From Escherichia phage ECP2303: a stretch of 64,000 nt of DNA. Position numbers and translations under genes: made by a program. Location of the stretch: sequence record PP261279.1. The stretch is one strand, 5' to 3'. Positions 9,742 to 56,344 of this stretch are shown here, piece after piece (position 1 is the stretch's first letter; the number at the start of each line of letters is the position of its first letter). The notes below the pieces were generated by a model. That model was not told the origin of the DNA and searched no databases. It worked only from the letters and a program-made list of their open reading frames with translations.

Positions 9742-10080
9742 CTCGTTTTCTTCCAGCTCTGAAAGCTCTTCTTTCACTTCTTCGAGCTCTGTCTGCAATT
9801 CTTGGTACTCTTCATCGTCCTCAATATCCAGGCTGTCGATGTAGTCGCTAAATCCGCAGCGGTAAGCGATAGGATCTAGCTCCTTGAGGATACGCGACGG
9901 AAGAAAAGAAATGTTTCCGATCATAATTTCGCCGTAGATCTCGTCTAACCATTCATCATAGTTTTCGTCGTACTTGTCCTCGTCGATTTCAAAGTTATCG
10001 ATCTTGTTCTCAAGGTCTGCGATCTGTTTTTTCAGCGCGGCGATCTGCATAGCTTTTTCTGCGGCGGTCATAGTAGTCAT
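9739..10080 (-). CDS. highly acidic coiled-coil protein (DNA-mimic candidate)
   Basis: 113 aa, rich in D/E with heptad-like segments (ELEEVKEELSELEENE). Confidence 0.65.
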   Translation of the reverse strand: MTTMTAAEKAMQIAALKKQIADLENKIDNFEIDEDKYDENYDEWLDEIYGEIMIGNISFLPSRILKELDPIAYRCGFSDYIDSLDIEDDEEYQELQTELEEVKEELSELEENE

Positions 10081-13566: not shown

Positions 13567-13899
13567 TTAAGGTAACCAGTAAACAATTTCGCCTTTCAGT
13601 TCCATGTCGTTACCGACATAGATTTTCCAGCCATCCATTTTAGCCACTGCAGGAGTGAAGTCCGTAGAACCACTAACCTCTTTCCAAGTCCCGTAGTCAG
13701 GTTGCCAGATATAGAATCCACCTTCCTTGTCCCATGCTCCATATACCACATCGAGCAGGTTGCCCATTGCAACAATAGTAGGCCGTGGGAATAATACATC
13801 TACAGATGCGCCACAATTTCGGGTAGATTTTAAATTACAATCCCAAAAGATGTCTGCCAGTGTGGCGGCGATAGCTTTACGTCTTTCTAATGTTACCAT
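13567..13899 (-). CDS. hypothetical protein
   Basis: 110-aa ORF. Confidence 0.6.
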   Translation of the reverse strand: MVTLERRKAIAATLADIFWDCNLKSTRNCGASVDVLFPRPTIVAMGNLLDVVYGAWDKEGGFYIWQPDYGTWKEVSGSTDFTPAVAKMDGWKIYVGNDMELKGEIVYWLP

Positions 13900-13909
13900 G
13901 GTACGATAC

Positions 13910-14101
13910 TCACTTGTTGTTAAGAAGTTCTAAAACTTTCTGTTTTACTTTATCAAGGTCTGTTGATTCAAAAACTGTGCGATATCCCCAACTTTGCCCA
14001 TAGGAATGACTGCAATCCCCGTAACACCATTGCTCAACTTGATAGTATTCAAGGAATGGGTGCTGTCTAACTATGATGCCGTCTCGATTAAAAATTACCA
14101 T
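13910..14101 (-). CDS. hypothetical protein
   Basis: 63-aa ORF. Confidence 0.55.
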   Translation of the reverse strand: MVIFNRDGIIVRQHPFLEYYQVEQWCYGDCSHSYGQSWGYRTVFESTDLDKVKQKVLELLNNK

Positions 14102-14610: not shown

Positions 14611-15069
14611 TCAACACCCTTTGTACTCCACCACGATAATATCTATATCAAAAGTGGCAAGGTTAATAATGTCCTCTACATGTTCCCACTTCAAACCGCC
14701 TATGCCGCACCCGATCTTAGGGATGTAGAATGGTAAAATCGACCCCTCAAATACTTCATTGACTCGCTCAAATCCTTTCAGTATTGAGAAATATTCAGCA
14801 TTAGGTCCTGGATAGAACTGAGTATACAGATTTATTCCGTAGACAATACCTCTCGGAGATAAGTGCTCCCAACGGGAGAACGCGCCCAGTTTACTTAGGC
14901 AACCGTGCATAGTCATTTTATCAGCTTCCAATGCTTGAGGGAATTCACGAGCAATCTGCTTTGCTACACCCTTCCCCATTGTGTGGAAGCAGTTACAACC
15001 GTGGATCAGGTGACCAGCACCGCTCTTAAAAAGGGAGATTAAATCTCCCTCTACAGTATCAATAATCAC
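14611..15069 (-). CDS. macro-domain protein (ADP-ribose binding/processing family)
   Basis: Translation shows IVIIDTVEGDLI, HGCNCFHTMGKGVAKQI and IPKIGCGIGG, aligning with macro-domain blocks (GDIT, NAAN...GGGGVDGAI, P.ISTG.YG); likely GTG start overlapping the upstream stop. Confidence 0.6.
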   Translation of the reverse strand: MIIDTVEGDLISLFKSGAGHLIHGCNCFHTMGKGVAKQIAREFPQALEADKMTMHGCLSKLGAFSRWEHLSPRGIVYGINLYTQFYPGPNAEYFSILKGFERVNEVFEGSILPFYIPKIGCGIGGLKWEHVEDIINLATFDIDIIVVEYKGC

Positions 15070-15484
15070 GATATTCCAGCTCCTCTTCCACAATTTCAAA
15101 AAACTCAGTCCAGCACTGCGGCATATTGGAGTTACCGAAGTGGCTTTCATAGTAAAGGTTTTTACCGCTCGGAAGATAGAAATCTGTTACCTCATAAAAT
15201 CCACAATCGTCGCACTCTCCCTCTTCAAACTTGGCCTTAATCTTAATACCAAGGAAGGTGAAAAGTTTATGGATATCTTCGGTCTCGAACTCCCAACTAA
15301 TGTTGTTTTCCGCATCGGTGTAAAACTGGATCAGTAGGCCATCATCCATTTTTCCAAAATATTCTGTGAAGTAGCTCCCTTCCCAGAAGTCTTTGTGACA
15401 AATAATATCCATGCGCTTGCCCATAATAAAGGTGTGGGCGTTTCGTGCATCGTCACGAATCAGTTTTGGCATTTCATAAATCAT
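15059..15484 (-). CDS. hypothetical protein
   Basis: 141-aa ORF. Confidence 0.65.
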   Translation of the reverse strand: MIYEMPKLIRDDARNAHTFIMGKRMDIICHKDFWEGSYFTEYFGKMDDGLLIQFYTDAENNISWEFETEDIHKLFTFLGIKIKAKFEEGECDDCGFYEVTDFYLPSGKNLYYESHFGNSNMPQCWTEFFEIVEEELEYRDY

Positions 15485-15549
15485 CGTAGTTCTCCAGGAT
15501 CAATAGGTGGTGCTACAGGAAGATCATAAAACATGGCGATCACATTCTC

Positions 15550-17914: not shown

Positions 17915-17996
17915 TGTGGAATCTCCGATTTTATTTGAACAACATAAAGGAGACACCATTTTAGCATCTCCTTCTGTAAATTACAACAGCTATTTA

Positions 17997-18242
17997 TTAG
18001 CCAATTACTTCGAAAGTGCCCCAACTCCCGTTCAGCAGGCAGGTGATCGGATCACCATCATCGTCAATTATTTCAAAGTTTTCAACATCCAGAATATGGT
18101 CATCGAACACAATACTTTCGTCACCACCACCAGAAACAACAGTGTATTCCTTACCTTGAGTCAAGTTTTGACACCCTTTGCCACCAAAACCTACTTCAAC
18201 ACAACGTACTTTCTGTCCTGCGCGAGCAACTACTTCAGCCAT
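17997..18242 (-). CDS. hypothetical small protein
   Basis: 81-aa ORF; RBS aggaga. Confidence 0.6.
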   Translation of the reverse strand: MAEVVARAGQKVRCVEVGFGGKGCQNLTQGKEYTVVSGGGDESIVFDDHILDVENFEIIDDDGDPITCLLNGSWGTFEVIG

Positions 18243-18259
18243 CTTAAGGTCTCCTGATA

Positions 18260-18562
18260 TTAATCGTCAAGTTCAAAATAGATTTTAACAGCTTCATCAA
18301 AGATTGGAATCCCGATGTTGTTGATAAGCTGCCAAACTACCATATCTTTTCCTGGATCTGGGAGAATGTCAACCTTTCTCCATGCGCTGTATATCCAGTT
18401 CGGACCGCCTTCTGCACTAACTGGTAGATTTTCACCAGCTTCCTGTAGATACTTATACAGCAAAAGGTATTCTGGATACTCTAGAACACTGTCCTCTGTA
18501 GTATACAGCAGTTCACGGTATACTTTCAAGAATCCTGTTGGGTTGATGTTTTCAGTCTTCAT
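18260..18562 (-). CDS. hypothetical protein
   Basis: Start placed at MKTENIN... with RBS aggaga. Confidence 0.6.
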   Translation of the reverse strand: MKTENINPTGFLKVYRELLYTTEDSVLEYPEYLLLYKYLQEAGENLPVSAEGGPNWIYSAWRKVDILPDPGKDMVVWQLINNIGIPIFDEAVKIYFELDD

Positions 18563-18956
18563 TTGCTGCTTCTCCTGCATTCATCAGATCTGCCATAGCG
18601 TCACCAACGAAGAGGACAACCACGTCGTTGACAGCGTCAGCATCATCTTTATTGATGTTGCTGAATTTGGGGCACACTGCAATGACCATATAGACCCCGT
18701 TGCCCAACTGAACAGTGCGTGTAGTGCACATCAGTGTGGTGCTTGTGCCTTCTTTAAAGGCAAATCCTTGCAGACGTTCTTCCAGAGAGCCACCTGTGGA
18801 TTTCAACAAGGCAAGATCTCCCAGTGCGTAGGTAGTGTCCTCATAGGTCAGTCCAGAGGTCAATGTTGCCTTTCCATCAGAGACTATAATAACTCCATCG
18901 GCACCGTCAAGCTCAGAGGCTTCAAAGATATTAATATCCCAAATGTTTTTCATCAC
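18552..18956 (-). CDS. hypothetical protein
   Basis: 134-aa ORF. Confidence 0.6.
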   Translation of the reverse strand: MMKNIWDINIFEASELDGADGVIIVSDGKATLTSGLTYEDTTYALGDLALLKSTGGSLEERLQGFAFKEGTSTTLMCTTRTVQLGNGVYMVIAVCPKFSNINKDDADAVNDVVVLFVGDAMADLMNAGEAANED

Positions 18957-19225
18957 GCTTCCTCGTCATCTAAGTAATCATCAAGAGAGGTGAAGATTTC
19001 ACCGAAGTATTCTAATACCTCCAGCTCTCTGGTGGTGCAACAAACATAATCTCCCTGGTCATCCTTGATAGTAGCCTCCTTACCTAGCACATCCACTTCA
19101 AATTCATCGTTTAGCAGGACGGCCCCTGTGTAAATTTTGTCTGCTGTGCAGTCCCGAAAAGCAGAGTCCTTCTCCAGATAGTCTGGCTTAACCTTGGCTT
19201 TAATTCGTTGATATTGTTTGGTCAT
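18953..19225 (-). CDS. small paralog-family protein
   Basis: Start at MTKQYQ... with RBS aaaggaga; shares (A/S)F(K/R)DCT...DD(E/Q)GD..(W/C)CT with 19289..19543. Confidence 0.6.
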   Translation of the reverse strand: MTKQYQRIKAKVKPDYLEKDSAFRDCTADKIYTGAVLLNDEFEVDVLGKEATIKDDQGDYVCCTTRELEVLEYFGEIFTSLDDYLDDEEA

Positions 19226-19288
19226 TGCTGTGGTCTCCTTTCGTTTTGATAGGGCCATTATATTAGACCCCATCTCTATTGTCAAGTA

Positions 19289-19543
19289 TTAATGCTCAGG
19301 TTTTACAAAAACTACTTCGTTAACAGTGCACCAGACAGAATCCCCTTCATCATCTTTAAAGGTAAGACACTGGGCCGAGTTTTCCAACTCATCAAGTTCT
19401 TCTTGTGATAAACAGGTTCCTTCTTCCAGAAGGGCTTTTACCAAAGGGTTCTCACAAAACTCTGCTTCATAAATTGCACCGAGTGTGCAATCTTTAAAAG
19501 CTCGGTCATTTGCAACGCATTCTGGCTTCAAAGTGATTTGCAT
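19289..19543 (-). CDS. small paralog-family protein
   Basis: 84 aa; RBS gaggag; paralogous to 18953..19225. Confidence 0.6.
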   Translation of the reverse strand: MQITLKPECVANDRAFKDCTLGAIYEAEFCENPLVKALLEEGTCLSQEELDELENSAQCLTFKDDEGDSVWCTVNEVVFVKPEH

Positions 19544-19619
19544 CTTAGCAGTCTCCTCAATTATTTAAAAATCAAATCTCTGTTTGTGTGAAGTATCTTA
19601 TATCCAATCTTACTTCTTG

Positions 19620-19991
19620 TCAATGGCTATTTTCAATCATCCACACAGGGTCGAGGTAAATTTGTTGGCGTTTTGCCCAATGACAAACTTCATTGTACAT
19701 CTGAATCTCTTTGTCTGTCAATTCACGAATAGGCTCATCTATACCCTCATTTTTGTGGTAATCCCAGTCGGCATCGATTTCCCACAACCATGACTTACGA
19801 TCTTCACGCTTACGCACACAGAAGTCCCCAGGACGGCCTGCCAGTGCATTTAAGAACTCGTTCTCCGCTCGCTCCTGAAGAATACTAAGGAGCAAAACGT
19901 TGGAGCATGACCGTAAAATATGCTTCAGCTCACAATCATCAATCTCAACTTCAATACGTTGCTTGACTGTGTGGGTACCTTTTACTAACAT
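19620..19991 (-). CDS. hypothetical protein
   Basis: Start at MLVKGTH... with RBS gaggagg. Confidence 0.6.
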   Translation of the reverse strand: MLVKGTHTVKQRIEVEIDDCELKHILRSCSNVLLLSILQERAENEFLNALAGRPGDFCVRKREDRKSWLWEIDADWDYHKNEGIDEPIRELTDKEIQMYNEVCHWAKRQQIYLDPVWMIENSH

Positions 19992-20001
19992 TCTACCTCC
20001 T

Positions 20002-20196
20002 CTATACAAACTCTGCAAGGGTTGTGTTGTTCACCGCACCGCAGTAGATGGAATATCCCAACCCATTAGGGTGCAGAAACCACGGCACACCTTGGTCATC
20101 CTTCACGTATACATCTCCATTTTTCGTGAAGGGCCAATACTCTTCCCCAAGGGTAAAATACCTACTCATACCTTCAGCCAGATACTTTACTTTCAT
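20002..20196 (-). CDS. small paralog-family protein (KDDxG..W(F/Y)(L/I) motif)
   Basis: 64 aa; shares the motif with 20193..20420 and 20417..20701. Confidence 0.55.
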   Translation of the reverse strand: MKVKYLAEGMSRYFTLGEEYWPFTKNGDVYVKDDQGVPWFLHPNGLGYSIYCGAVNNTTLAEFV

Positions 20197-20420
20197 AGAT
20201 CCTCTTCAACAGCTACAAACTTGGCAAGTAGGGTGGTTCCATAGATATGATACTCACCGTTTGCCAGATGGGAGATATACCAGGAGATACCGTCCTCGTC
20301 TTCGATCATATTGTTTCTGCGATCCTTATCGTAATAAACCTTGTAGACCTTACCTTCTTCAAAGAATGATAAATCTGTCATCTTCTCTTCTACAAACGTC
20401 GCTTTAACCAAAGTTGTCAT
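20193..20420 (-). CDS. small paralog-family protein
   Basis: 75 aa; motif EDEDGISWYI. Confidence 0.55.
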   Translation of the reverse strand: MTTLVKATFVEEKMTDLSFFEEGKVYKVYYDKDRRNNMIEDEDGISWYISHLANGEYHIYGTTLLAKFVAVEEDL

Positions 20421-20701
20421 TGATCTGCCTCCTTCTTGTTAAGCCGGAACACTGCAATAATAGCATTTCCAAGATGCAGTGTCAAATCATTTCCCAGATA
20501 CCACAGCATTCCACGGTCATCTTTAATGAAAGGGTAACAGTCTGGTGCCTTCCAGACATTATACACTTTGCCGACCTGAAAGAAATCAGGCCCTGTTGGA
20601 ATTTTAGTACCGGGCCACACTTGAGACACCTGAACGCACTCTACCTGCATAATAACAGGAATAGTCATGGAGGTAAATGTTTTTGTCGGTTCTACTACCA
20701 T
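20417..20701 (-). CDS. small paralog-family protein
   Basis: 94 aa; motif KDDRGMLWYL. Confidence 0.55.
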   Translation of the reverse strand: MVVEPTKTFTSMTIPVIMQVECVQVSQVWPGTKIPTGPDFFQVGKVYNVWKAPDCYPFIKDDRGMLWYLGNDLTLHLGNAIIAVFRLNKKEADQ

Positions 20702-20752: not shown

Positions 20753-23530
20753 TTAGTGACAATCGCCCCAGTTACGACCGCACAAGTATTCACCTGTGAT
20801 CTGGAACGGAACGCCCATCATTTTAGAAGCCTGCCAGAAGCAATGCACCACCATTTCGCCCACAGGGCTCCAGATAAGTTCAAGCTTTCCGTCATCGTTC
20901 AAGATAGGATCGTATACCGTATTTCCGTCCTTGTCAACCATTTCGTTTCCATCCTCATCTTTGCGTGCCTTTTTGTACTTATGACCGTCGAACACATGAA
21001 GTTTAGCCTCCTGCTTGGCCTTAAATGTTTCCAGCTCTTCAATTGTGTCGAAGGTGTATACGGTTTTATACTTAGGTGTGTCAGGCACTTGAAGCTGATA
21101 TTCGTCATGGTAATAAATAATACGACGAACACCTTCATCATACCATCCACGCTTCACCATTTGGTGGTGCATGAGGATTCCGACCAAGTCGCACAACGAT
21201 GCACCGCCATTTTGCTGATATGCATTAAGCAAAGAGTGTTTAGAGCGGGTCCAAATGGCATGCCCGTCAAAAGAGTAGATAAATTTCTTACCTGTTGCTT
21301 CCCAGAATTTCTCCAGATCCTCTTTACGCCCCTTAAGGCCTGGGTTGGCATCCCAGAGAGCATCAATTACTCTCTGTCCAAGTTCTGGAGAGATATCTAG
21401 CATATCTGCAACTTTATCTTTTTGTGCCCCGTACATAACCCCATATGTGACAGGCTTACCATCGTTACGAGACACCTCTCTACCTGCTACTTTTGTATAT
21501 GCCTCAGCATTGTTTTGGTGCGCGTCCCCGTTACTTACAACATCATAATACAGACCGTTGTCAAACTCAAAGGCACCCCAGGCCCCGATGAGCTGCTCTA
21601 AGTTGGACCCGTCAATACCGATCTCAAAGTATCCCGGAGGAACACCCCACAGACTACGCATCTCTTTACCCATAACCACTTTAGGAGATGGTTTAGGCAT
21701 GTTTGCACAAATACTATGTTTCTGTCTGGAAGTGTTTGTTAATCCAGAACTTTTAGCAGGAAGCTTGTGGTCAATCTTCAAACGTGGATGATTAAGAAGA
21801 CCAGTATCAACCTTATCTTCCTTGATTGGATCAAGGACCGATCTGCGGTTTCGCAATGATAACCACAAAACGATATCTTTAGCCATCTCTCCGTTCAATT
21901 TTTCAAGATTCGGGCACAGGTGTCCAAACGTATCTTTCAGTTGCGGAGAAGTAATAAGCGCTCTGGCTTTTCTACGTATCTTCCCAAACACTTCCTTTTT
22001 AATCCTTTCTGAGTTAGGGAAGCTTCGGAACTTATGCACAGTTGTCTGGAACTTGGCATCAGTTTTGTTCCAGAAGTTGATAATTAGATCACAATACTCT
22101 GACTCTAAAAGCTCGTCCATATATGCATATACTCGTGCATCAACATCTGCATCAGGTAAAGCTTTCTTCTTACTATCCTTAGTTACATCCTTAGTTCTCC
22201 ACATTGTTGGGAGCCAACCAGCACTGATCAGGTATCGCTTGATGTCGTCCTGATTGCTGATTTTCATAGGTATCTTGCAGTCAGGCATTCGCTTCTGCTG
22301 TAGGTCACTTATCGCCTGATCCATCAGCTCTTTAGGTAAAGGGTGTGGTGTAGAAGTTCCTTTGATATACCCCCTCAAGAAATCAGCCATCTTATCGGGG
22401 TCTTTACAGCCCATCTCTTCACACCATTTTATCCCCATCTTACTTACATCCCCTGTGGAGGTAAATGCTCGCTTAGGAGGGGCTTTAAATTCTAAAGCAC
22501 TCATGTCTACAGGATAGCCAAGCTTGTCTTTTAACCATTTCCAACCATTATTGGAGATTGTCCCATCTTGGTTAAACGGCTTTTCAGGGAACTTAGGCCG
22601 TTGAGACATTGATAGCTCTTTTAAAGGAAGTTGTGGTTCAACACGATCAGCGATCTCTTTCATCCACGCATCGCAGCGGTCACGTAAAGCAATAGCCCCA
22701 TCTATGTCGAAATACACCCCCTGTCGAGCCTGCAGCTCCATCAGGAAGTGCTGTAACATGCCTCGGCGTAATGCGTTCTTCCAGGTGATCTTCTTGAAGC
22801 CTTTCGGCTTCTCTTTGGCAGGATCGTACATAAAGTTCTGCATGTCAGATTTGCCGTAGAATACACCTTTTGATTCAGCTACCAACTCCTTCCAGAGCAA
22901 CTCCTGAATGATAACGTCCTCGAACACACGATCCACATACTTCCACAGCGGAAGCTCACGCCAGTCATCGATTTGAACTTTCTGGTTACCAAGGGCATAG
23001 CCCCATGCCATAAGGCCATGAGGCCCAACAGGCTGCATTTTCTTGGTAACTGGATTGAATACTGCGTCCGGACAACCTTTTGGCAAAGGGCGGTCAGGCC
23101 ACAAGATTCGACTCATCGCTAACGTATCAAACAGATTAACCTGGTGGTCGTTGATAGTTCCCATGCATTTAGGATCACGGAACATATCAAAATGAATACC
23201 GGATAATCTTTCCATCAGCATAAAGTCGTAACTGTAGCAGTTATGGCAGTTCAAAGCCGTAGGTGACCAGTCTGAATTGCCTGTAAGCCAGCCTTCCAAC
23301 TCTGAAAAATCTGCTATGCGAGCCTCAAAATCTGTATAAAGGGTCTTCTTTGCCAGAATGAAGTTCTTAGCTTTCTCCACATCCTCTTCAGAGTAGTGTG
23401 TGCGGTCATTTAGGGGAAGGAACAGCATAAAACGGTTCTTATTCAGCTCTTTAAACAAACCGCAGTGATAATAAAGATCTGGGTCTTCCAGCAAGCCAGA
23501 GGCCTCAAAATCGAACGACCACATGCTCAT
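20753..23530 (-). CDS. DNA polymerase, family A, with N-terminal 3'-5' exonuclease domain
   Basis: 925 aa; Exo I-like FDFEASGL; motif A-like GIDGSNLEQL; motif B-like RNDGKPVTYGVMYG; motif C-like IIYYHDEYQL; RBS aaggaga. Confidence 0.9.
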   Translation of the reverse strand: MSMWSFDFEASGLLEDPDLYYHCGLFKELNKNRFMLFLPLNDRTHYSEEDVEKAKNFILAKKTLYTDFEARIADFSELEGWLTGNSDWSPTALNCHNCYSYDFMLMERLSGIHFDMFRDPKCMGTINDHQVNLFDTLAMSRILWPDRPLPKGCPDAVFNPVTKKMQPVGPHGLMAWGYALGNQKVQIDDWRELPLWKYVDRVFEDVIIQELLWKELVAESKGVFYGKSDMQNFMYDPAKEKPKGFKKITWKNALRRGMLQHFLMELQARQGVYFDIDGAIALRDRCDAWMKEIADRVEPQLPLKELSMSQRPKFPEKPFNQDGTISNNGWKWLKDKLGYPVDMSALEFKAPPKRAFTSTGDVSKMGIKWCEEMGCKDPDKMADFLRGYIKGTSTPHPLPKELMDQAISDLQQKRMPDCKIPMKISNQDDIKRYLISAGWLPTMWRTKDVTKDSKKKALPDADVDARVYAYMDELLESEYCDLIINFWNKTDAKFQTTVHKFRSFPNSERIKKEVFGKIRRKARALITSPQLKDTFGHLCPNLEKLNGEMAKDIVLWLSLRNRRSVLDPIKEDKVDTGLLNHPRLKIDHKLPAKSSGLTNTSRQKHSICANMPKPSPKVVMGKEMRSLWGVPPGYFEIGIDGSNLEQLIGAWGAFEFDNGLYYDVVSNGDAHQNNAEAYTKVAGREVSRNDGKPVTYGVMYGAQKDKVADMLDISPELGQRVIDALWDANPGLKGRKEDLEKFWEATGKKFIYSFDGHAIWTRSKHSLLNAYQQNGGASLCDLVGILMHHQMVKRGWYDEGVRRIIYYHDEYQLQVPDTPKYKTVYTFDTIEELETFKAKQEAKLHVFDGHKYKKARKDEDGNEMVDKDGNTVYDPILNDDGKLELIWSPVGEMVVHCFWQASKMMGVPFQITGEYLCGRNWGDCH

Positions 23531-23588
23531 ATACAGTTCTCCTTAAAGGGGAGGCGGTTGTACTACCCCTCCCACTCTTGGTTAAACA

Positions 23589-25667
23589 TTAAAAAGGTGT
23601 TTCGTCGTCTTCAAAACCAGGAACGTGGTTAGAGGACGGATCATCATACTGAAGATCTTCCTGTGTGTCAACAGGGTTAACAGCAGGAGTTATAACCTTA
23701 TCAGCCACAACCTTGCCCACAGGTGTTTCTACAACTGCATGCTCCTGATCCTCAAACATAGCTTGAGGTCTCCAAACAACCTCTCCACCTTCCCCGTCTG
23801 TAAACATCTGCATCTCTTTATCCCAATACCAATTGCTGGCATCGTGGAACTTGCCTGTGTGGGGATCCATAACTAGGGTGTCCGCAATACCTAAGGTTTT
23901 TGCTGGGCGGTTTTTAAGACCTACCAGCCGGACACGTCCACGGGAACGATCCACCATCTCCTCTGCCTCTACCCCGACAACCACCCAGCTAAGTTGCTCC
24001 AATCCGGCACTACCGCGAAGGTTCTCTTTTCGCACAGGGTACCAGAAAGGTAACGGATTTCCATCCTTATCCTTCGGAGGTACAATCTCTGTGCGCTTCA
24101 GGTGAGCAATCACCAAGATAAACACATTAAACTGCTTACAGAACGCGGCTAGTTGAGTCATAGCCATGTCAAGCTCTTTACGCTCATCCTTAACATTAAG
24201 CCCTGAAATCACCATAGACAAGTGATCCAGCACAATGTAACGGCAGTGATACAGGCACACCATTTGTTTAAGCTTAGTGATCAGCTCATCTACAGGGATG
24301 GAGCCGAAATGCTTGAACACTTTGATTTTTCCGGCCTTGGCCCAAGATTGATGAATCTCAGCGTGCTCCTGATCGGTCAGGAACTGACTGGGGTCTTCAA
24401 CAAACTCTTTAACATCAAACCCCAGCTGGTTAGCGTACAGAGAGTTGATTGCTTCCTCAGGATCCTCTTCAAGGTGAATCAGGCACAGGCGATCATCCTC
24501 TTCATAATCATCAGCTTTAGGGCATGTTGGGTCCATCAAGTATCTTGCAATGCAATGTTCCAGCTTCTTGGCTACAGTTGTTTTACCACCGCCAGACGGG
24601 CCTGTCAGCATCATCAAGGTGCCTTTGTGGAGTCCTTTCAGCATCTTCTGCAGTTTAGGGAACTCTGCACTAATATCCACGCCATTGGAAGTCTTCTTAC
24701 GAAGAGATTCAATGGAGAAGTCTTCTAAATCAGATACAGCATCAGGCACATATTTGACTGGGTGACGGAACATGTTGACAATATCTTCCAGCTTTTTAGC
24801 CTTCAGCATGTCACGAATATCTTTTACACCATCAGGGTCGTTTACCTCACCTGGGTATTCCACGTGGTAAACGTTGTCAGCCATCAAAAATGCTGCGATA
24901 TTATGCGTAGCTTCAACACCTTTGATAACGTGTTTTTGCTTCTCTACCTCGTTAGCTGCATCGTTGTCCATTGCAAGGACTACTGTTCCGTAGCTACGGA
25001 TAAATTTCTCATTGTTCGCAAAAGTGTCTACGGCGTTTGCACACCCGCAGTTAATTCCGACAAAAGGCAGGCATGGTTTTCCTGCCAGATCACCGCCGTT
25101 GATAACTGCATCAATCCCATCCTGGACTTCTTTAGCCCACTGCTTCACCTTCGCTGGGGCTTTAGCATTGGTGAGAATACCTTTTACTTGTACCTGATAT
25201 GCAGCCTGCCACGCTGCAATAACATCTCCTTCCCCCTCACAAACGTTAATCTGCTTGCGGTTGTTGGAGGATGCACACAGCTTTTGACCAAACATCTGGG
25301 AGTTGGCCTTTACTATGCCGACAACCGAGAAATGGCCCCTTTGCTCTTTAGGGATTGTCCAGTCACGCTTTTTAAAGCCAGATAGATTACCGTAGCGGTC
25401 ATAATACGGAAAGTAGGTGGCAGTAACAGTTACGCCATCCTCTTGGGATAGCGATGATCGTACACCAAAATATTGTGCAGCCATCAGTCCAATATTTTGT
25501 TGTGGAACAGGGACAATTTTAGTATTTTCTAAAACAGTCTCTACAGTTTCAACTTCTTTTTCATCACGATAGTCTCGTTTCACACTTCCCCCACTTTTAT
25601 ACTTAGTTGCTTTCGGGTTTGGCTCACCGAAACGGTTGTATGCAGATGCCATGAATTTACTGCCCAT
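23589..25667 (-). CDS. primase-helicase (TOPRIM primase + DnaB-family helicase, T7 gp4-like)
   Basis: 692 aa; TOPRIM-like VCEGEGD and LAMDNDAAN; Walker A LTGPSGGGKTT; VLDHLSMV; IAHLKR; LRGSAGLEQLS. Confidence 0.85.
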   Translation of the reverse strand: MGSKFMASAYNRFGEPNPKATKYKSGGSVKRDYRDEKEVETVETVLENTKIVPVPQQNIGLMAAQYFGVRSSLSQEDGVTVTATYFPYYDRYGNLSGFKKRDWTIPKEQRGHFSVVGIVKANSQMFGQKLCASSNNRKQINVCEGEGDVIAAWQAAYQVQVKGILTNAKAPAKVKQWAKEVQDGIDAVINGGDLAGKPCLPFVGINCGCANAVDTFANNEKFIRSYGTVVLAMDNDAANEVEKQKHVIKGVEATHNIAAFLMADNVYHVEYPGEVNDPDGVKDIRDMLKAKKLEDIVNMFRHPVKYVPDAVSDLEDFSIESLRKKTSNGVDISAEFPKLQKMLKGLHKGTLMMLTGPSGGGKTTVAKKLEHCIARYLMDPTCPKADDYEEDDRLCLIHLEEDPEEAINSLYANQLGFDVKEFVEDPSQFLTDQEHAEIHQSWAKAGKIKVFKHFGSIPVDELITKLKQMVCLYHCRYIVLDHLSMVISGLNVKDERKELDMAMTQLAAFCKQFNVFILVIAHLKRTEIVPPKDKDGNPLPFWYPVRKENLRGSAGLEQLSWVVVGVEAEEMVDRSRGRVRLVGLKNRPAKTLGIADTLVMDPHTGKFHDASNWYWDKEMQMFTDGEGGEVVWRPQAMFEDQEHAVVETPVGKVVADKVITPAVNPVDTQEDLQYDDPSSNHVPGFEDDETPF

Positions 25668-41271: not shown

Positions 41272-41286
41272 GAGAGGATGTTATTT

Positions 41287-41544
41287 ATGGCAACAGAGGT
41301 AGTAATTAAAGCTGAACGCCCAGTTAAAAAAGCTATCAACACGTTCCCTGTGGGGACCATTGTGAGCATGATCACAGAGTCAGGTCGTGTATCTACGCTG
41401 CTGATTGTGAAATCTGCATGTTCTTCTTGTGTGTGGGCTTACGATCTGGACGAGAAAGAACTAAAAGATTTTGTTGGGGAGCTGAAAGCAACCGAGCTCG
41501 ATGCTCGTATCGAAGTATTTGGTGAAACTATGGAGGAAGAGTAA
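41287..41544 (+). CDS. small paralog-family protein
   Basis: Start at MATEVV...; similar in outline to 41544..41807 and 41809..42042. Confidence 0.55.
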   Translation: MATEVVIKAERPVKKAINTFPVGTIVSMITESGRVSTLLIVKSACSSCVWAYDLDEKELKDFVGELKATELDARIEVFGETMEEE

Positions 41545-41807
41545 TGACCACGAAAATCACTATTGCAGAACCGAAAGCTAACACGCAACCTATCGAAAAG
41601 TTTAAATGCGGCGAGGTGGTAACATTCACACCAGATAATGAAGATGCTAAGATTTTCGCAATGGTCACAGCTGAGTGGATGTGTGACAACACCACACAGG
41701 TTCTGCGTTTTGACACCTATCTTACCGATGAAATCAGGAACGACAAGATTGTGACTGGTGTGGATACTGAGATTGTTTTCTACAAGAGCTTTTTAGAGGG
41801 TTTCTGA
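41544..41807 (+). CDS. small paralog-family protein
   Basis: 87-aa ORF. Confidence 0.6.
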   Translation: MTTKITIAEPKANTQPIEKFKCGEVVTFTPDNEDAKIFAMVTAEWMCDNTTQVLRFDTYLTDEIRNDKIVTGVDTEIVFYKSFLEGF

Positions 41808-41808
41808 T

Positions 41809-42042
41809 ATGGCAAAAATTCGAAAATTATCTAGCAATCAGGTTGTGAAAGACTTCGAATCTGGAGAGATTCTTTATGTTCGTGATGCAGATGACGAAGG
41901 TGAAGATCTCGTTATGTTGGTGGGGCACGCTGAGGACGGATGCATCCAAGCTGTTTTTCTTGAAACAGCTATGGTGCACTGGATAGAGCTGGACTTGAAA
42001 GCACGAAAACCTAAAGCAGAAATCCTGATTTACGAAGATTAA
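41809..42042 (+). CDS. small paralog-family protein
   Basis: 77-aa ORF. Confidence 0.6.
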   Translation: MAKIRKLSSNQVVKDFESGEILYVRDADDEGEDLVMLVGHAEDGCIQAVFLETAMVHWIELDLKARKPKAEILIYED

Positions 42043-44704: not shown

Positions 44705-44869
44705 TCGATTTTAAGGCCTCAAACGAGGCCTGTGCCTTCATAAATTGTCCTACCCTATGTGATTACCCACCCTGAACAAAATACCTCTCCAAAATCGTTT
44801 AAAATTAAGCTTGACCCCAACATCAGATCTATGTATGATTACCTCACCAACCAAACAGAGGAGATCGTC

Positions 44870-45277
44870 ATGAACAATCTTGCAGATGTAAATGTCGAAA
44901 TTGTTAAACTAAAGTTCTTGGGCTTTCGAGACCCTTATTCTTTAACAGCTATACTAATGGACACTCACTTCACACCAGGTAAAGAGTACACAGCCTTCCG
45001 TTATATTTGTGGAGATCACGAATCAGCTTATAGTGTGAATACAAACCTCGGCGAGGGATATTTCATCAGAGATATCACAGATCACTTATGGGGAATGTGG
45101 GAGTTGGTGGAAGAAGAGAATAAATCCCTTCCTAAAGAGATTTGGGTGCACACCTTCCACACAGGTAAGTTTGGAGGTACGGAACATAAGTCTATCCACT
45201 ATGATGAAGAAAGTGCCATCAAACAACAAGCTGTGCTTGGTGGATCTGTAGAAAAATTTTTTAAATGCGAGGACTGA
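44870..45277 (+). CDS. hypothetical protein
   Basis: Start at MNNLADV... with RBS gaggag. Confidence 0.55.
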   Translation: MNNLADVNVEIVKLKFLGFRDPYSLTAILMDTHFTPGKEYTAFRYICGDHESAYSVNTNLGEGYFIRDITDHLWGMWELVEEENKSLPKEIWVHTFHTGKFGGTEHKSIHYDEESAIKQQAVLGGSVEKFFKCED

Positions 45278-53245: not shown

Positions 53246-54292
53246 TTAAGCATAAGATATAGTGATCCATTGACCGTTTACAAGTTTTTGGATAGCACCT
53301 GTCCAGTAATCACCTTGATAAGGGTGTTTATAAGCGTAGTTACCAGAGCACATCACATGTCCAGGGTAGACTCTTGACTCTCTGTAGGTGGTTTTGAAAC
53401 GGTTTGCTATCCTTACATCGTCAACCCCTCTACTGGGCATAGGGACAGTAAGGTTACCACTACCGTCTGCGCTGTTACCGTTTACCCTGCGGACCACGTT
53501 TCTTCCACCAACGGTTGCATATTGGCCTCTAACGGTTTCATCGTTACAATCAACTCTTCCACCTATTTGAGCGCTTCCGCAGGATTGTTGTCCGTTAACA
53601 GTGGCTCTTGGTATCGTGACCGCATTGGCATTTGCAGAGGAACTTTTTGCATCGTTGCATTCAAGATTTCCTTGGATAGCCAGTCTTGCACGGTTGGCAG
53701 TTATAGCATTGAGCTTCATAGCCGAAAACACAGGCTGCCCACCAGAAGGTTGAAATCTCCAACGGAACCCGTCTATTTGGTGAGAAGGATCATCAAGGTC
53801 TGTGCCGTCAGCACCACCGATGTTGTCCATAATCCAGAAATCCATCGTCGTCTTGTCTGGCGTTATGGTGGTATATATTGCCGCACTGTCTGTTGACGCA
53901 GATGCAAACTCGATTCTTTGGAGACCTAAAGTTTGAGTCTGAGTCATTATGTCTCCAGACTTGTCAACATATAGATCGTCCATTTCTTCAGGTGAGTATA
54001 CATTGAGAACTTGACGTGCAGCAGCTTTGTCTGGAACGTCTGCTAGATTATTAGTGACCCTTAAGAATCTATTATCCCATCCTGGGACAACATCTTCTGT
54101 TAAATGCTTCAACCACGCAGAAAGCATGTGAAGTTCAAAGTTAACAACTTCACATGCCATTCTTTGTGTCATATCCCAACCTTTCAATCTCTCTTCTTTT
54201 TTTGGTTGAGACTTATTCAACTCTCCCGTATTTTCAAGCACAACATCCTGATTGGCCCAAATATCAAGAGGGATAACTGGTTTAGTCATCAC
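53246..54292 (-). CDS. tail fibre protein, paralog 2
   Basis: 348 aa; shares PL(D/E)IWA N-terminus and LQKLVNGQWIT(I/V)(S/N)YA C-terminus with 55304..56344. Confidence 0.7.
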   Translation of the reverse strand: MMTKPVIPLDIWANQDVVLENTGELNKSQPKKEERLKGWDMTQRMACEVVNFELHMLSAWLKHLTEDVVPGWDNRFLRVTNNLADVPDKAAARQVLNVYSPEEMDDLYVDKSGDIMTQTQTLGLQRIEFASASTDSAAIYTTITPDKTTMDFWIMDNIGGADGTDLDDPSHQIDGFRWRFQPSGGQPVFSAMKLNAITANRARLAIQGNLECNDAKSSSANANAVTIPRATVNGQQSCGSAQIGGRVDCNDETVRGQYATVGGRNVVRRVNGNSADGSGNLTVPMPSRGVDDVRIANRFKTTYRESRVYPGHVMCSGNYAYKHPYQGDYWTGAIQKLVNGQWITISYA

Positions 54293-55303: not shown

Positions 55304-56344
55304 CTATGCATAATTAACAGTGATCCATTGACCGTTTACAAGTTTTTGTAAAGGTCCTGCCCAGTAAGTTGAACCACGCATCTCTTTTTTGTCACCGAAA
55401 TGCCAGCCTGTGACAACGTAGCCGTTGCGGATTGGAGATTCAGAAACGCCGTCCACAAGTCTTGCACCGATTCTGATGTCTTGCACACCTGTCTGCGGGA
55501 TAGTGATCGTTACATCACCGTTACCGTTAGCCGTCACTCCGTTCACAGAGCGAACCACATTTCTGTTACCGACAACACAGTGCTGGCTTCTTACAACCAT
55601 ACTGTCACAACTTGCACCACCATTAACATATACTGACCCAGCCGTCAATTGACTAGCCACATTGCAGTTGGTGAATGTTGCTGTATTACTGATAGTAAGG
55701 TTATTACACCTCATGTTATCGACAACTTCAACATTGCCTACCACTTTCAACAGCGCACGGTTAGCCGTGATCGCGTTAAGGTACATCAAAGTGAACTCTG
55801 GATTAATATCCGGCTGAGTTGGCTGGAATCTCCAACGAAACGCATCTACTGTAGATGTACCGCCATCATCAAACGACCCGGTATTATCACTTAACCCAAA
55901 GTCGAGAGTTGTCTTATCTGGGCCAATAGTCGTCTCTATCCAAGCCTTATCTGTCTCGGCAGCTTTAAAGTTGATACGTTGCAAACCCAAGGGGCCTGTC
56001 ATTGTATCACCTGTAACTTTTACATACCTGGCGTCTGCCTCTTCCTTGGTAATAATCCCAAGGTTTCTACGGGCAACAGGGATGTTCAAAAGATCACTCA
56101 AGTTATTATCACGTACCAGATAACGGCCTTCTTGAGCGGGGATCTGCTCGTCAGCAATATATTTTGCCCAAGTTCCGAGCATATTGAAAATATAGTTAAG
56201 TTCTTCACATGAGGGCTTTTGACCAAGATCCCAACCTTTTCTCCACAAATCATCAATCGGGCGTAGCCTGTTCTGTCTGTGGGTGTTAGGCAGAACCTGA
56301 TCCTCCTCTGCCCAAATCTCTAATGGAAAACTAGGTTTTGACAT
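55304..56344 (-). CDS. tail fibre protein, paralog 1
   Basis: 346 aa; conserved termini shared with 53246..54292; followed by tfa. Confidence 0.7.
   Translation of the reverse strand: MSKPSFPLEIWAEEDQVLPNTHRQNRLRPIDDLWRKGWDLGQKPSCEELNYIFNMLGTWAKYIADEQIPAQEGRYLVRDNNLSDLLNIPVARRNLGIITKEEADARYVKVTGDTMTGPLGLQRINFKAAETDKAWIETTIGPDKTTLDFGLSDNTGSFDDGGTSTVDAFRWRFQPTQPDINPEFTLMYLNAITANRALLKVVGNVEVVDNMRCNNLTISNTATFTNCNVASQLTAGSVYVNGGASCDSMVVRSQHCVVGNRNVVRSVNGVTANGNGDVTITIPQTGVQDIRIGARLVDGVSESPIRNGYVVTGWHFGDKKEMRGSTYWAGPLQKLVNGQWITVNYA

Follow-up and report, generated by a model that had tools for sequence, protein, structure and literature searches.

Two families of small paralogous proteins encoded downstream of the polymerase gene in an rV5-like phage, one linked by profile searches to a wider phage module with a predicted Gp54-like fold

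The stretch of DNA analyzed here (64,000 nucleotides (nt) from Escherichia phage ECP2303, PP261279.1; hereafter the window) is 100% identical to the record of Escherichia phage ECP2309 (PP464953.1; Vequintavirus, rV5-like), in which each coordinate equals the window coordinate plus 459. Its positions 17997 to 20701 hold a block of nine small minus-strand genes that lies, in the sense of transcription, directly downstream of the genes for a DNA polymerase of polymerase family A (925 amino acids (aa); 20753..23530, minus strand) and a primase-helicase. An original prediction, made from the letters of the window, had described five of these genes as a single array of adjacent paralogs with shared short motifs. 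Its coordinates were correct, and every open reading frame (ORF) that it named in the array corresponds to a minus-strand coding sequence annotated as "hypothetical protein" in PP464953.1; the rV5 equivalents are gp211 for 17997 and gp214-gp219 for 18953 through 20417. The genes and signals of the block are given below in order of transcription, and genes are referred to by their lower coordinate. "Family A" and "family B" denote the two paralog families described here, and "module" the wider superfamily to which family B is linked.

20417..20701, minus strand: family B and module member, 94 aa, rV5 gp219; full module including the N-terminal strand; the protein modeled with AlphaFold
20193..20420, minus strand: family B and module member, 75 aa, rV5 gp218; 4-nt overlap with both neighbors; own phrog_12623, cross-match to phrog_12922
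20002..20196, minus strand: family B and module member, 64 aa, rV5 gp217; own phrog_12802, also matched by the repeat proteins P0013 and P0014
19620..19991, minus strand: intervening unrelated gene, 123 aa, rV5 gp216, phrog_6273; no similarity to either family
19595..19623, minus strand: sigma70-like promoter, 10/12 consensus positions, TTGACA-17-TAAGAT; upstream of 19289..19543, at the position of P220 annotated in the rV5 record
19289..19543, minus strand: family A member, 84 aa, rV5 gp215; 16-aa insert relative to its paralog 18953; net charge about -13
19257..19285, minus strand: perfect sigma70 consensus promoter, 12/12, TTGACA-17-TATAAT; in the 63-nt gap upstream of 18953..19225
18953..19225, minus strand: family A member, 90 aa, rV5 gp214; phrog_11936, cross-match to phrog_12544; net charge -12.5
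18552..18953, minus strand: unrelated gene, 133 aa, rV5 gp213, phrog_8284; clean profile against family A, E = 2.1
18260..18562, minus strand: unrelated gene, 100 aa, rV5 gp212; Pfam DUF7238 (3.8e-7), phrog_1451
17997..18242, minus strand: module member, 81 aa, rV5 gp211, phrog_4927; insertion of about 11 aa ahead of the DDxG turn; aligns in register with family B
17946..17974, minus strand: tentative, weak terminator-like hairpin directly downstream of 17997..18242; 13 pairs, only 4 of them G-C, and a poor T-run

A GGAG/GAGG Shine-Dalgarno sequence precedes every gene in the block, and ATGA overlaps of 4 nt chain 20417, 20193, and 20002, which are therefore translationally coupled. Sigma70-like sites, counted as consensus matches only, are enriched in the region (24 against 13 +/- 3.2 expected), with 21 of the 24 on the coding (minus) strand; judged by these signals, the region looks to be transcribed by the host RNA polymerase. 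Nothing specific was found in the literature on early transcription of rV5 or Vequintavirus or on functional screens of these genes.

Pairwise relationships were scored as Smith-Waterman z values from 300 composition-preserving shuffles, with BLASTP run alongside under compositional adjustment, and they divide the five genes into two families. Family A comprises 18953 and 19289 (z = 15; BLASTP 2e-9). Family B comprises the trio 20417, 20193, and 20002: 20417 pairs with 20193 (z = 11.6; BLASTP 2e-7) and with 20002 (z = 6.0; BLASTP 7e-4), whereas 20002 and 20193 (z = 5.9, no BLASTP match) are joined only via 20417 and the profiles. Both motif groups noted in the original prediction are thus real and far beyond chance (z 6-15, BLASTP 2e-9 to 7e-4), except that 20193..20420 reads IEDEDG and has no KDDxG; the literal pattern KDD.G occurs four times in the 41,662 ORF residues of the window, against 0.25 expected, each time inside these genes. 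They are indeed small paralogous phage genes, but they are not strictly adjacent, since the unrelated gene 19620..19991 lies between trio and pair, and they do not form a single array: alignment, which had been proposed as a check, confirmed homology within A and within B, and neither hidden Markov models (HMMs) nor hhalign merged the two. Across the window and four sister-genus loci, HMMs built from the window paralogs alone matched only their own members. Identity between paralogs is 25-33%. In an all-against-all BLASTP of the 438 window ORFs, families A and B account for two of just three genuine paralog pairs; the third consists of 53246..54292 and 55304..56344 (both minus strand, about 346 aa each), 43% identical over 356 aa (E = 1e-93). 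Pfam returned nothing significant for the paralog genes, and in PHROGs they fall only in families of unknown function, each founding its own and cross-matching within its family.

When the family B profile was searched with HMMER against 1.84 billion representative proteins, eight matches were returned, and the module was reached across this library at 4.8e-5. Besides orthologs, the matches were P0013 (571 aa), P0014 (346 aa), and P0015 (744 aa); the last was rejected as a module protein, being on inspection a low-complexity repeat protein and a false positive. P0013 is built of five and P0014 of four tandem modules, each 65-90 aa long and following the pattern h-x-G-D-x-h-x-C ... (F/Y)(F/W)TxGKEYxV ... 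hxDDxG ... F. Their contigs are phage-like, with small genes and replication genes as neighbors (Prim-Pol; DnaB, Toprim, RecA, and helicases), and a second four-repeat protein, outside the training set, adjoins P0014 (E = 8e-40). The relationship is found equally from the other side: an HMM built only from the P0013 and P0014 repeats ranked 20002 first (3e-8), then 20193 (5e-7), 20417 (3e-5), and 17997 (0.003). An outgroup-only HMM, made from the repeats and a Salmonella-phage ORF without any Vequintavirus sequence, returned the same four genes among the 438 ORFs, at 6.5e-9, 1.8e-6, 8.2e-5, and 2.3e-4, respectively.

The 81-aa gene 17997..18242, which the original prediction had thought similar in outline, is thereby tied specifically to the 20002-20701 trio, a leave-one-out HMM finding it at 1.4e-4. 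P0013 repeats match phrog_4927, the family of 17997 itself, at 2e-18, and also phrog_12802, that of 20002, and the repeat protein L015_2550 matches phrog_4927 at 5e-12. On this profile evidence 17997 belongs to the same superfamily as family B. The three small plus-strand genes that had been likened to the array show no significant similarity to either family or to one another:

41278..42042, plus strand: three small genes, in neither family; Smith-Waterman z <= 4, no BLASTP match at E <= 0.05, HMM E >= 4.5 or absent; PHROGs 10698, 12861, and 12046

An iterative profile search of 1,979 ORFs converged on 11 proteins with 21 domains, and the superfamily so delineated appears to span PHROGs 3523, 4927, 12802, 12623, 12922, 10169, 15929, and others, which had previously been unlinked. 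The genome of ECP2309 contains a fifth clear copy, of 78 aa, between anaerobic ribonucleotide reductase (RNR) genes (record PP464953.1 119553..119789; L018:5254-5490; E = 7e-8), and two or three borderline members elsewhere, including record 127008..127295 and 133260..133511. Judged by eye, the second of these could be a form midway from the module to family A, but the family A profile does not detect it. One further candidate lies within the window:

44759..45277, plus strand: borderline module candidate outside the family; 172-aa ORF (annotated at about 135 aa, phrog_15992), HMM E 0.02-0.08 with several profile versions

Beyond these, a 136-aa DUF3310 protein (L015:10279-10689, plus strand) has an N-terminal copy of the module (E = 1e-4, and 2e-11 on iteration) and is also the best non-self match of family A (E = 0.11). 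The Drexlerviridae phage Bas10 IsaakIselin (L014) gave weak module matches in small ORFs at 9846..10016, 13665..14030, 18760..18945, 21309..21500, and 23379..23852; one of these ORFs, bas10_0043, was recruited on iteration, the four others stood at E of about 0.004, and Gp57 of the same phage was undetected by sequence. Such matches suggest that the module may be common among the small genes of T1-like phages.

Both families were found by tblastn at E <= 1 in 115 of 50,697 phage genomes; these are exclusively Vequintavirus genomes, and nearly every one carries both copies of family A. At least 80% of the 3.5-kb block is covered in 114 records, and the block is syntenic. Word-indexed homolog searches likewise returned only Vequintavirus orthologs, and a scan of viral contigs two near-identical loci. 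Pairwise ratios of nonsynonymous to synonymous substitution rates (dN/dS) for the nine small genes against four relatives are 0.01-0.23; for 20417 they are 0.01-0.02, with 1-3 nonsynonymous against 20-25 synonymous changes. These ratios indicate strongly that all nine genes are under purifying selection and that each copy is now conserved. Given the genus-wide presence and synteny, these behave as core genes of the genus and not a fast-turnover accessory arsenal, and with paralogs only 25-33% identical the duplications must be old, older than the radiation of the genus. Patchy presence or rapid turnover among close relatives was not seen in the 114-115 Vequintavirus records. Between genera, in contrast, the block is completely replaced: at this position, sister genera whose polymerase is 53-58% identical encode a wholly different set of small genes.

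Sixteen of the 115 records are labeled "Campylobacter phage" (host Campylobacter jejuni) and are 98-99% identical to E. coli rV5-like phages here; they are probably mislabeled or contaminant assemblies. In about ten relatives (P0001/L008; the rV5_ev147 and slur16 group) the 20417 ortholog has an 11-aa tandem duplication, KAPDCHPFIKE-KAPNCYPFIK, in the predicted beta2-beta3 loop, and the barrel evidently tolerates such an insertion.

Structure prediction had been the other check proposed in the original prediction, and it succeeded for one family: the AlphaFold model of 20417 is a predicted six-stranded small beta-barrel of the type of Gp54 from phage Bas11, whereas the family A model was unusable. 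The prominent beta1-beta2 loop that, with six strands, characterizes the PF25180 fold is present in the predicted model of 20417, and its structural matches in BFVD are all uncharacterized small phage proteins, with TM scores up to 0.82. Gp54 has been described as a near-orphan fold without a close structural relative; it binds the pseudo-zinc-finger antitoxin domain of CapRelSJ46, partly unfolding in doing so, and its close homologs from Bas5, Bas8, Bas10, and SECphi27 do not activate CapRelSJ46 (PMC11578894).

Family A presents a separate case. Fifteen positions are invariant across 13 orthologs and paralogs, including C19 and C72, and the invariant cysteines (DC(T/S) ... CT) flank a DDxGD turn; the proteins are very acidic, with net charges of -12.5 and -13.4 over 84-90 aa, and the family is confined to Vequintavirus. 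When deeper profiles of family A and the module were aligned with hhalign, 49 columns fell in register through both motifs, with a probability of just 11.8%; 3 of 200 column shuffles reached the score. The alignment of the N-terminal halves at T.G..Y persists once the KDDxG region is cut away, with a score that 6 of 200 shuffles attained. Three of the five best non-self HMM matches of family A are module carriers. It is therefore probable, as far as these profiles can tell, that family A is a divergent branch of the same module by common ancestry. In its full form this proposal makes A and B one homologous family of a single fold, the product of serial tandem duplications of a single ancestral gene for a small barrel, and we judge that form equally probable: the two motifs are colinear and in register, the genes are adjacent and similar in size, and KDD.G is unique to them in the window. 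The motif, however, was defined post hoc, and convergent evolution can place a DDxG beta-turn behind a strand.

An apparent link between family A and the neighboring gene 18552..18956 (hhalign 69%) was rejected, as it was an artefact of including P0027, a natural fusion in a Vequintavirus relative. P0027 corresponds to window 18552..19225 and is a 131-aa protein in which the N-terminus of 18953 is joined to the C-terminus of 18552 at a shared CTTR. This tetrapeptide, the fusion site, is all that 18552..18953 has in common with family A, and the DNA microhomology at the junction amounts only to about TGCAC plus AC.

We lean, slightly, towards an explanation in which the block is a conserved, host-promoter-driven set of genes encoding two ancient paralog families, with protein-binding barrels in family B and 17997 and, probably as a divergent branch of the same module, family A. 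The four genes 17997, 20002, 20193, and 20417 each encode a free-standing copy of the module, which measures 60-75 aa, is mostly acidic and specific to phages, and has its motifs in the order hydrophobic strand, long loop, (F/Y)(F/W)TxGKEYxV, hxDDxG, W(F/Y)h, and C-terminal F. Each barrel would be non-enzymatic and bind a protein of either the host or the phage; as the paralogs drew apart they would have taken on separate partners, with selection holding them fixed thereafter, and the tandem-repeat versions of other phages, with four or five copies per polypeptide, might give multivalent binding. No profile indicates an enzymatic activity in these proteins. Direct binding to nucleic acid was considered and judged unlikely because most members are acidic (isoelectric point, pI, 4.1-5.2). 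The proteins would be single small barrels, and protein binding is suggested by the multivalent repeats elsewhere and by Gp54, the only characterized protein with the fold, which binds a protein.

Several results weigh against this explanation. Family A was never recruited by module HMMs (E of about 1-3; 1.7-3.4 with the outgroup-only profile), no HMM comparison between A and B gave an E value below 0.1, the hhalign probabilities for the pair are only 1-12%, and the AlphaFold2 model of family A has a pLDDT of 46 and is partly helical. As regards the fold, PDB sequence searches with family B and module profiles gave chance matches only; no window protein matches PF25180 (gathering threshold 27 bits) even at E <= 1, while Gp57 of Bas10, the positive control, does so at 1.1e-34; and hhalign of the module profile with Gp57 gave a probability of 0.4%. 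As regards binding, no annotated homolog points to a partner, Gp54 is known only as a defence trigger (PMC11578894), and 20417, with a pI of 6.5, is near neutral.

Among the alternative functions, an anti-defence or host-takeover arsenal, the role suggested in the original prediction, survives best; every paralog would then block its own target among the immune or housekeeping proteins of the host early in infection. Such a role is possible, and we regard it as unlikely. The proteins are small and acidic, with host-type promoters, and the net charge of about -13 over the 84-90 aa of family A resembles that of DNA-mimic inhibitors; the paper on Gp54 raises, as speculation, the idea that it might block some other defence system, and points to Ocr as a protein that is trigger and inhibitor at once (PMC11578894). 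The genes are, however, core, syntenic in 115 genomes, and under strong purifying selection, and are not variable accessory cargo; no annotated family of known function was matched in Pfam or PHROGs; and neither SH3 nor barrel nor Gp54 is named anywhere in a survey covering 268 known anti-defence proteins. Anti-restriction in particular is disfavored, because Vequintavirinae are reported to be exceptionally sensitive to restriction-modification (PMC8594841).

We consider it less probable still that the barrels are accessory factors of the replisome or of nucleotide metabolism, binding the replication or deoxynucleotide-synthesis proteins of the phage itself as adaptors or chaperones. The module does occur among replication genes in three unrelated phage contexts: directly downstream of the polymerase and primase-helicase here, between DnaB and Toprim/RecA genes in L016, and near Prim-Pol in L015; elsewhere in ECP2309 it sits between anaerobic RNR genes. 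This recurrent neighborhood, together with the strong conservation within the genus, favors an internal phage partner. Against it, the region downstream of the polymerase is wholly different in sister genera with the same replisome, neither family occurs outside Vequintavirus, Bas11 can do without its Gp54 (PMC11578894), and many phages have small ORFs crowded among their replication genes with no functional link to them; the dispensability of Gp54 and the wholesale exchange of the block from one genus to the next favor a host-specific role instead.

A more far-reaching version of the protein-binding explanation, which we offer as a long shot, is that the module constitutes a large superfamily of metastable Gp54-like barrels, deployed as paralogs or repeats, that would dock on sensor domains, zinc-finger-like or of a similar kind, in the immunity proteins of the host. 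In that case they would serve fused toxin-antitoxin sensors of the CapRel type as natural ligands, acting as triggers that resemble pathogen-associated molecular patterns, and in multiple copies would act as decoys or inhibitors that saturate such sensors; the rV5 array would be a set of paralogs matched to several host sensors. Least credible of all, and refuted within each family by the alignment statistics so that it could hold solely for the A-B link, is the proposal that the similarity is due to chance or composition and that the genes are unrelated acidic ORFans: small acidic phage proteins do share a common composition and 20002 and 20193 have no BLASTP match, but the z values of 6-15 were obtained with composition-preserving shuffles and the BLASTP values of 2e-9, 2e-7, and 7e-4 with compositional adjustment, four genes were recovered by an independent outgroup profile, and the exhaustive search of 1.84 billion proteins returned, apart from P0015, only orthologs and repeat-module proteins.

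Some neighbors of the paralogs have histories of their own. A counterpart of 19620..19991 also lies downstream of the polymerase in Enterobacter phage FENT2, and 18260..18562 has a relative at another position in that phage, a wider conservation than that of the paralog families. The same row of small genes includes, some 3 kb further on, an annotated macro-domain protein (14611..15069, minus strand; record 15070..15528), a candidate for an ADP-ribose-processing function in the early region. The DNA polymerase gene is intact here, and in FV3, HeinrichReichert, WalterGehring, YP-6, and others it is divided into two or three pieces by insertions of HNH homing endonucleases; the rV5 RefSeq record annotates the polymerase as several fragments.

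The finding is an evolutionary and structural classification, not a demonstrated new mechanism. What is new is that profile searches connect family B with the 81-aa gene and with a broader superfamily of phage modules, not linked before, for which a Gp54-like fold is predicted. If the fold prediction is true, the Gp54 fold would be part of a much larger superfamily, covering a dozen or more PHROGs of unknown function and multiplied into paralogs in rV5-like phages and into tandem repeats elsewhere. The work yields candidate defence triggers or binders, some of them in BASEL Vequintaviruses, and a sequence profile that can be used to annotate many phage ORFans. As rV5-like phages are common candidates for phage therapy, it would be useful to learn which of their conserved small proteins trip abortive-infection sensors.

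Among known systems, Ocr, ArdA, and other DNA-mimic anti-restriction proteins resemble family A only, which is likewise small, probably early-expressed, and very acidic (-12.5 to -13.4); the likeness comes without sequence or structural evidence, the cysteine pair and DDxGD turn of family A are absent from the known mimics, and Vequintavirinae are, as cited above, sensitive to restriction. SH3-like small barrels (FeoA, the RecD SH3 domain, eukaryotic SH3) have five strands and a 3-10 helix, in contrast to the six strands predicted here, and show no sequence relationship to the module, a far weaker likeness than that to Gp54. For Gp54 of Bas11 (PDB 9AXB; PF25180; Zhang et al., Nature 2024, PMC11578894) the likeness is one of predicted fold: sequence homology to the module is not detectable, Gp54 belongs to a different family, PHROG 7421, and Foldseek did not reproduce the fold match. 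Gp54 is moreover a single gene in a phage of the Drexlerviridae, whereas the module is present in Vequintavirinae as at least four to five paralogs per genome and elsewhere in tandem-repeat form. The closest relatives are those tandem-repeat proteins (P0013 with five repeats, P0014 with four, and L015:2550-3626 with four; phrog_3523). They come from unrelated phage genomes and link several copies in one polypeptide of 346-571 aa where rV5-like phages have separate small genes, and they carry the same module, detectable by HMM in both directions, are likewise acidic, and are likewise encoded among early and replication genes.

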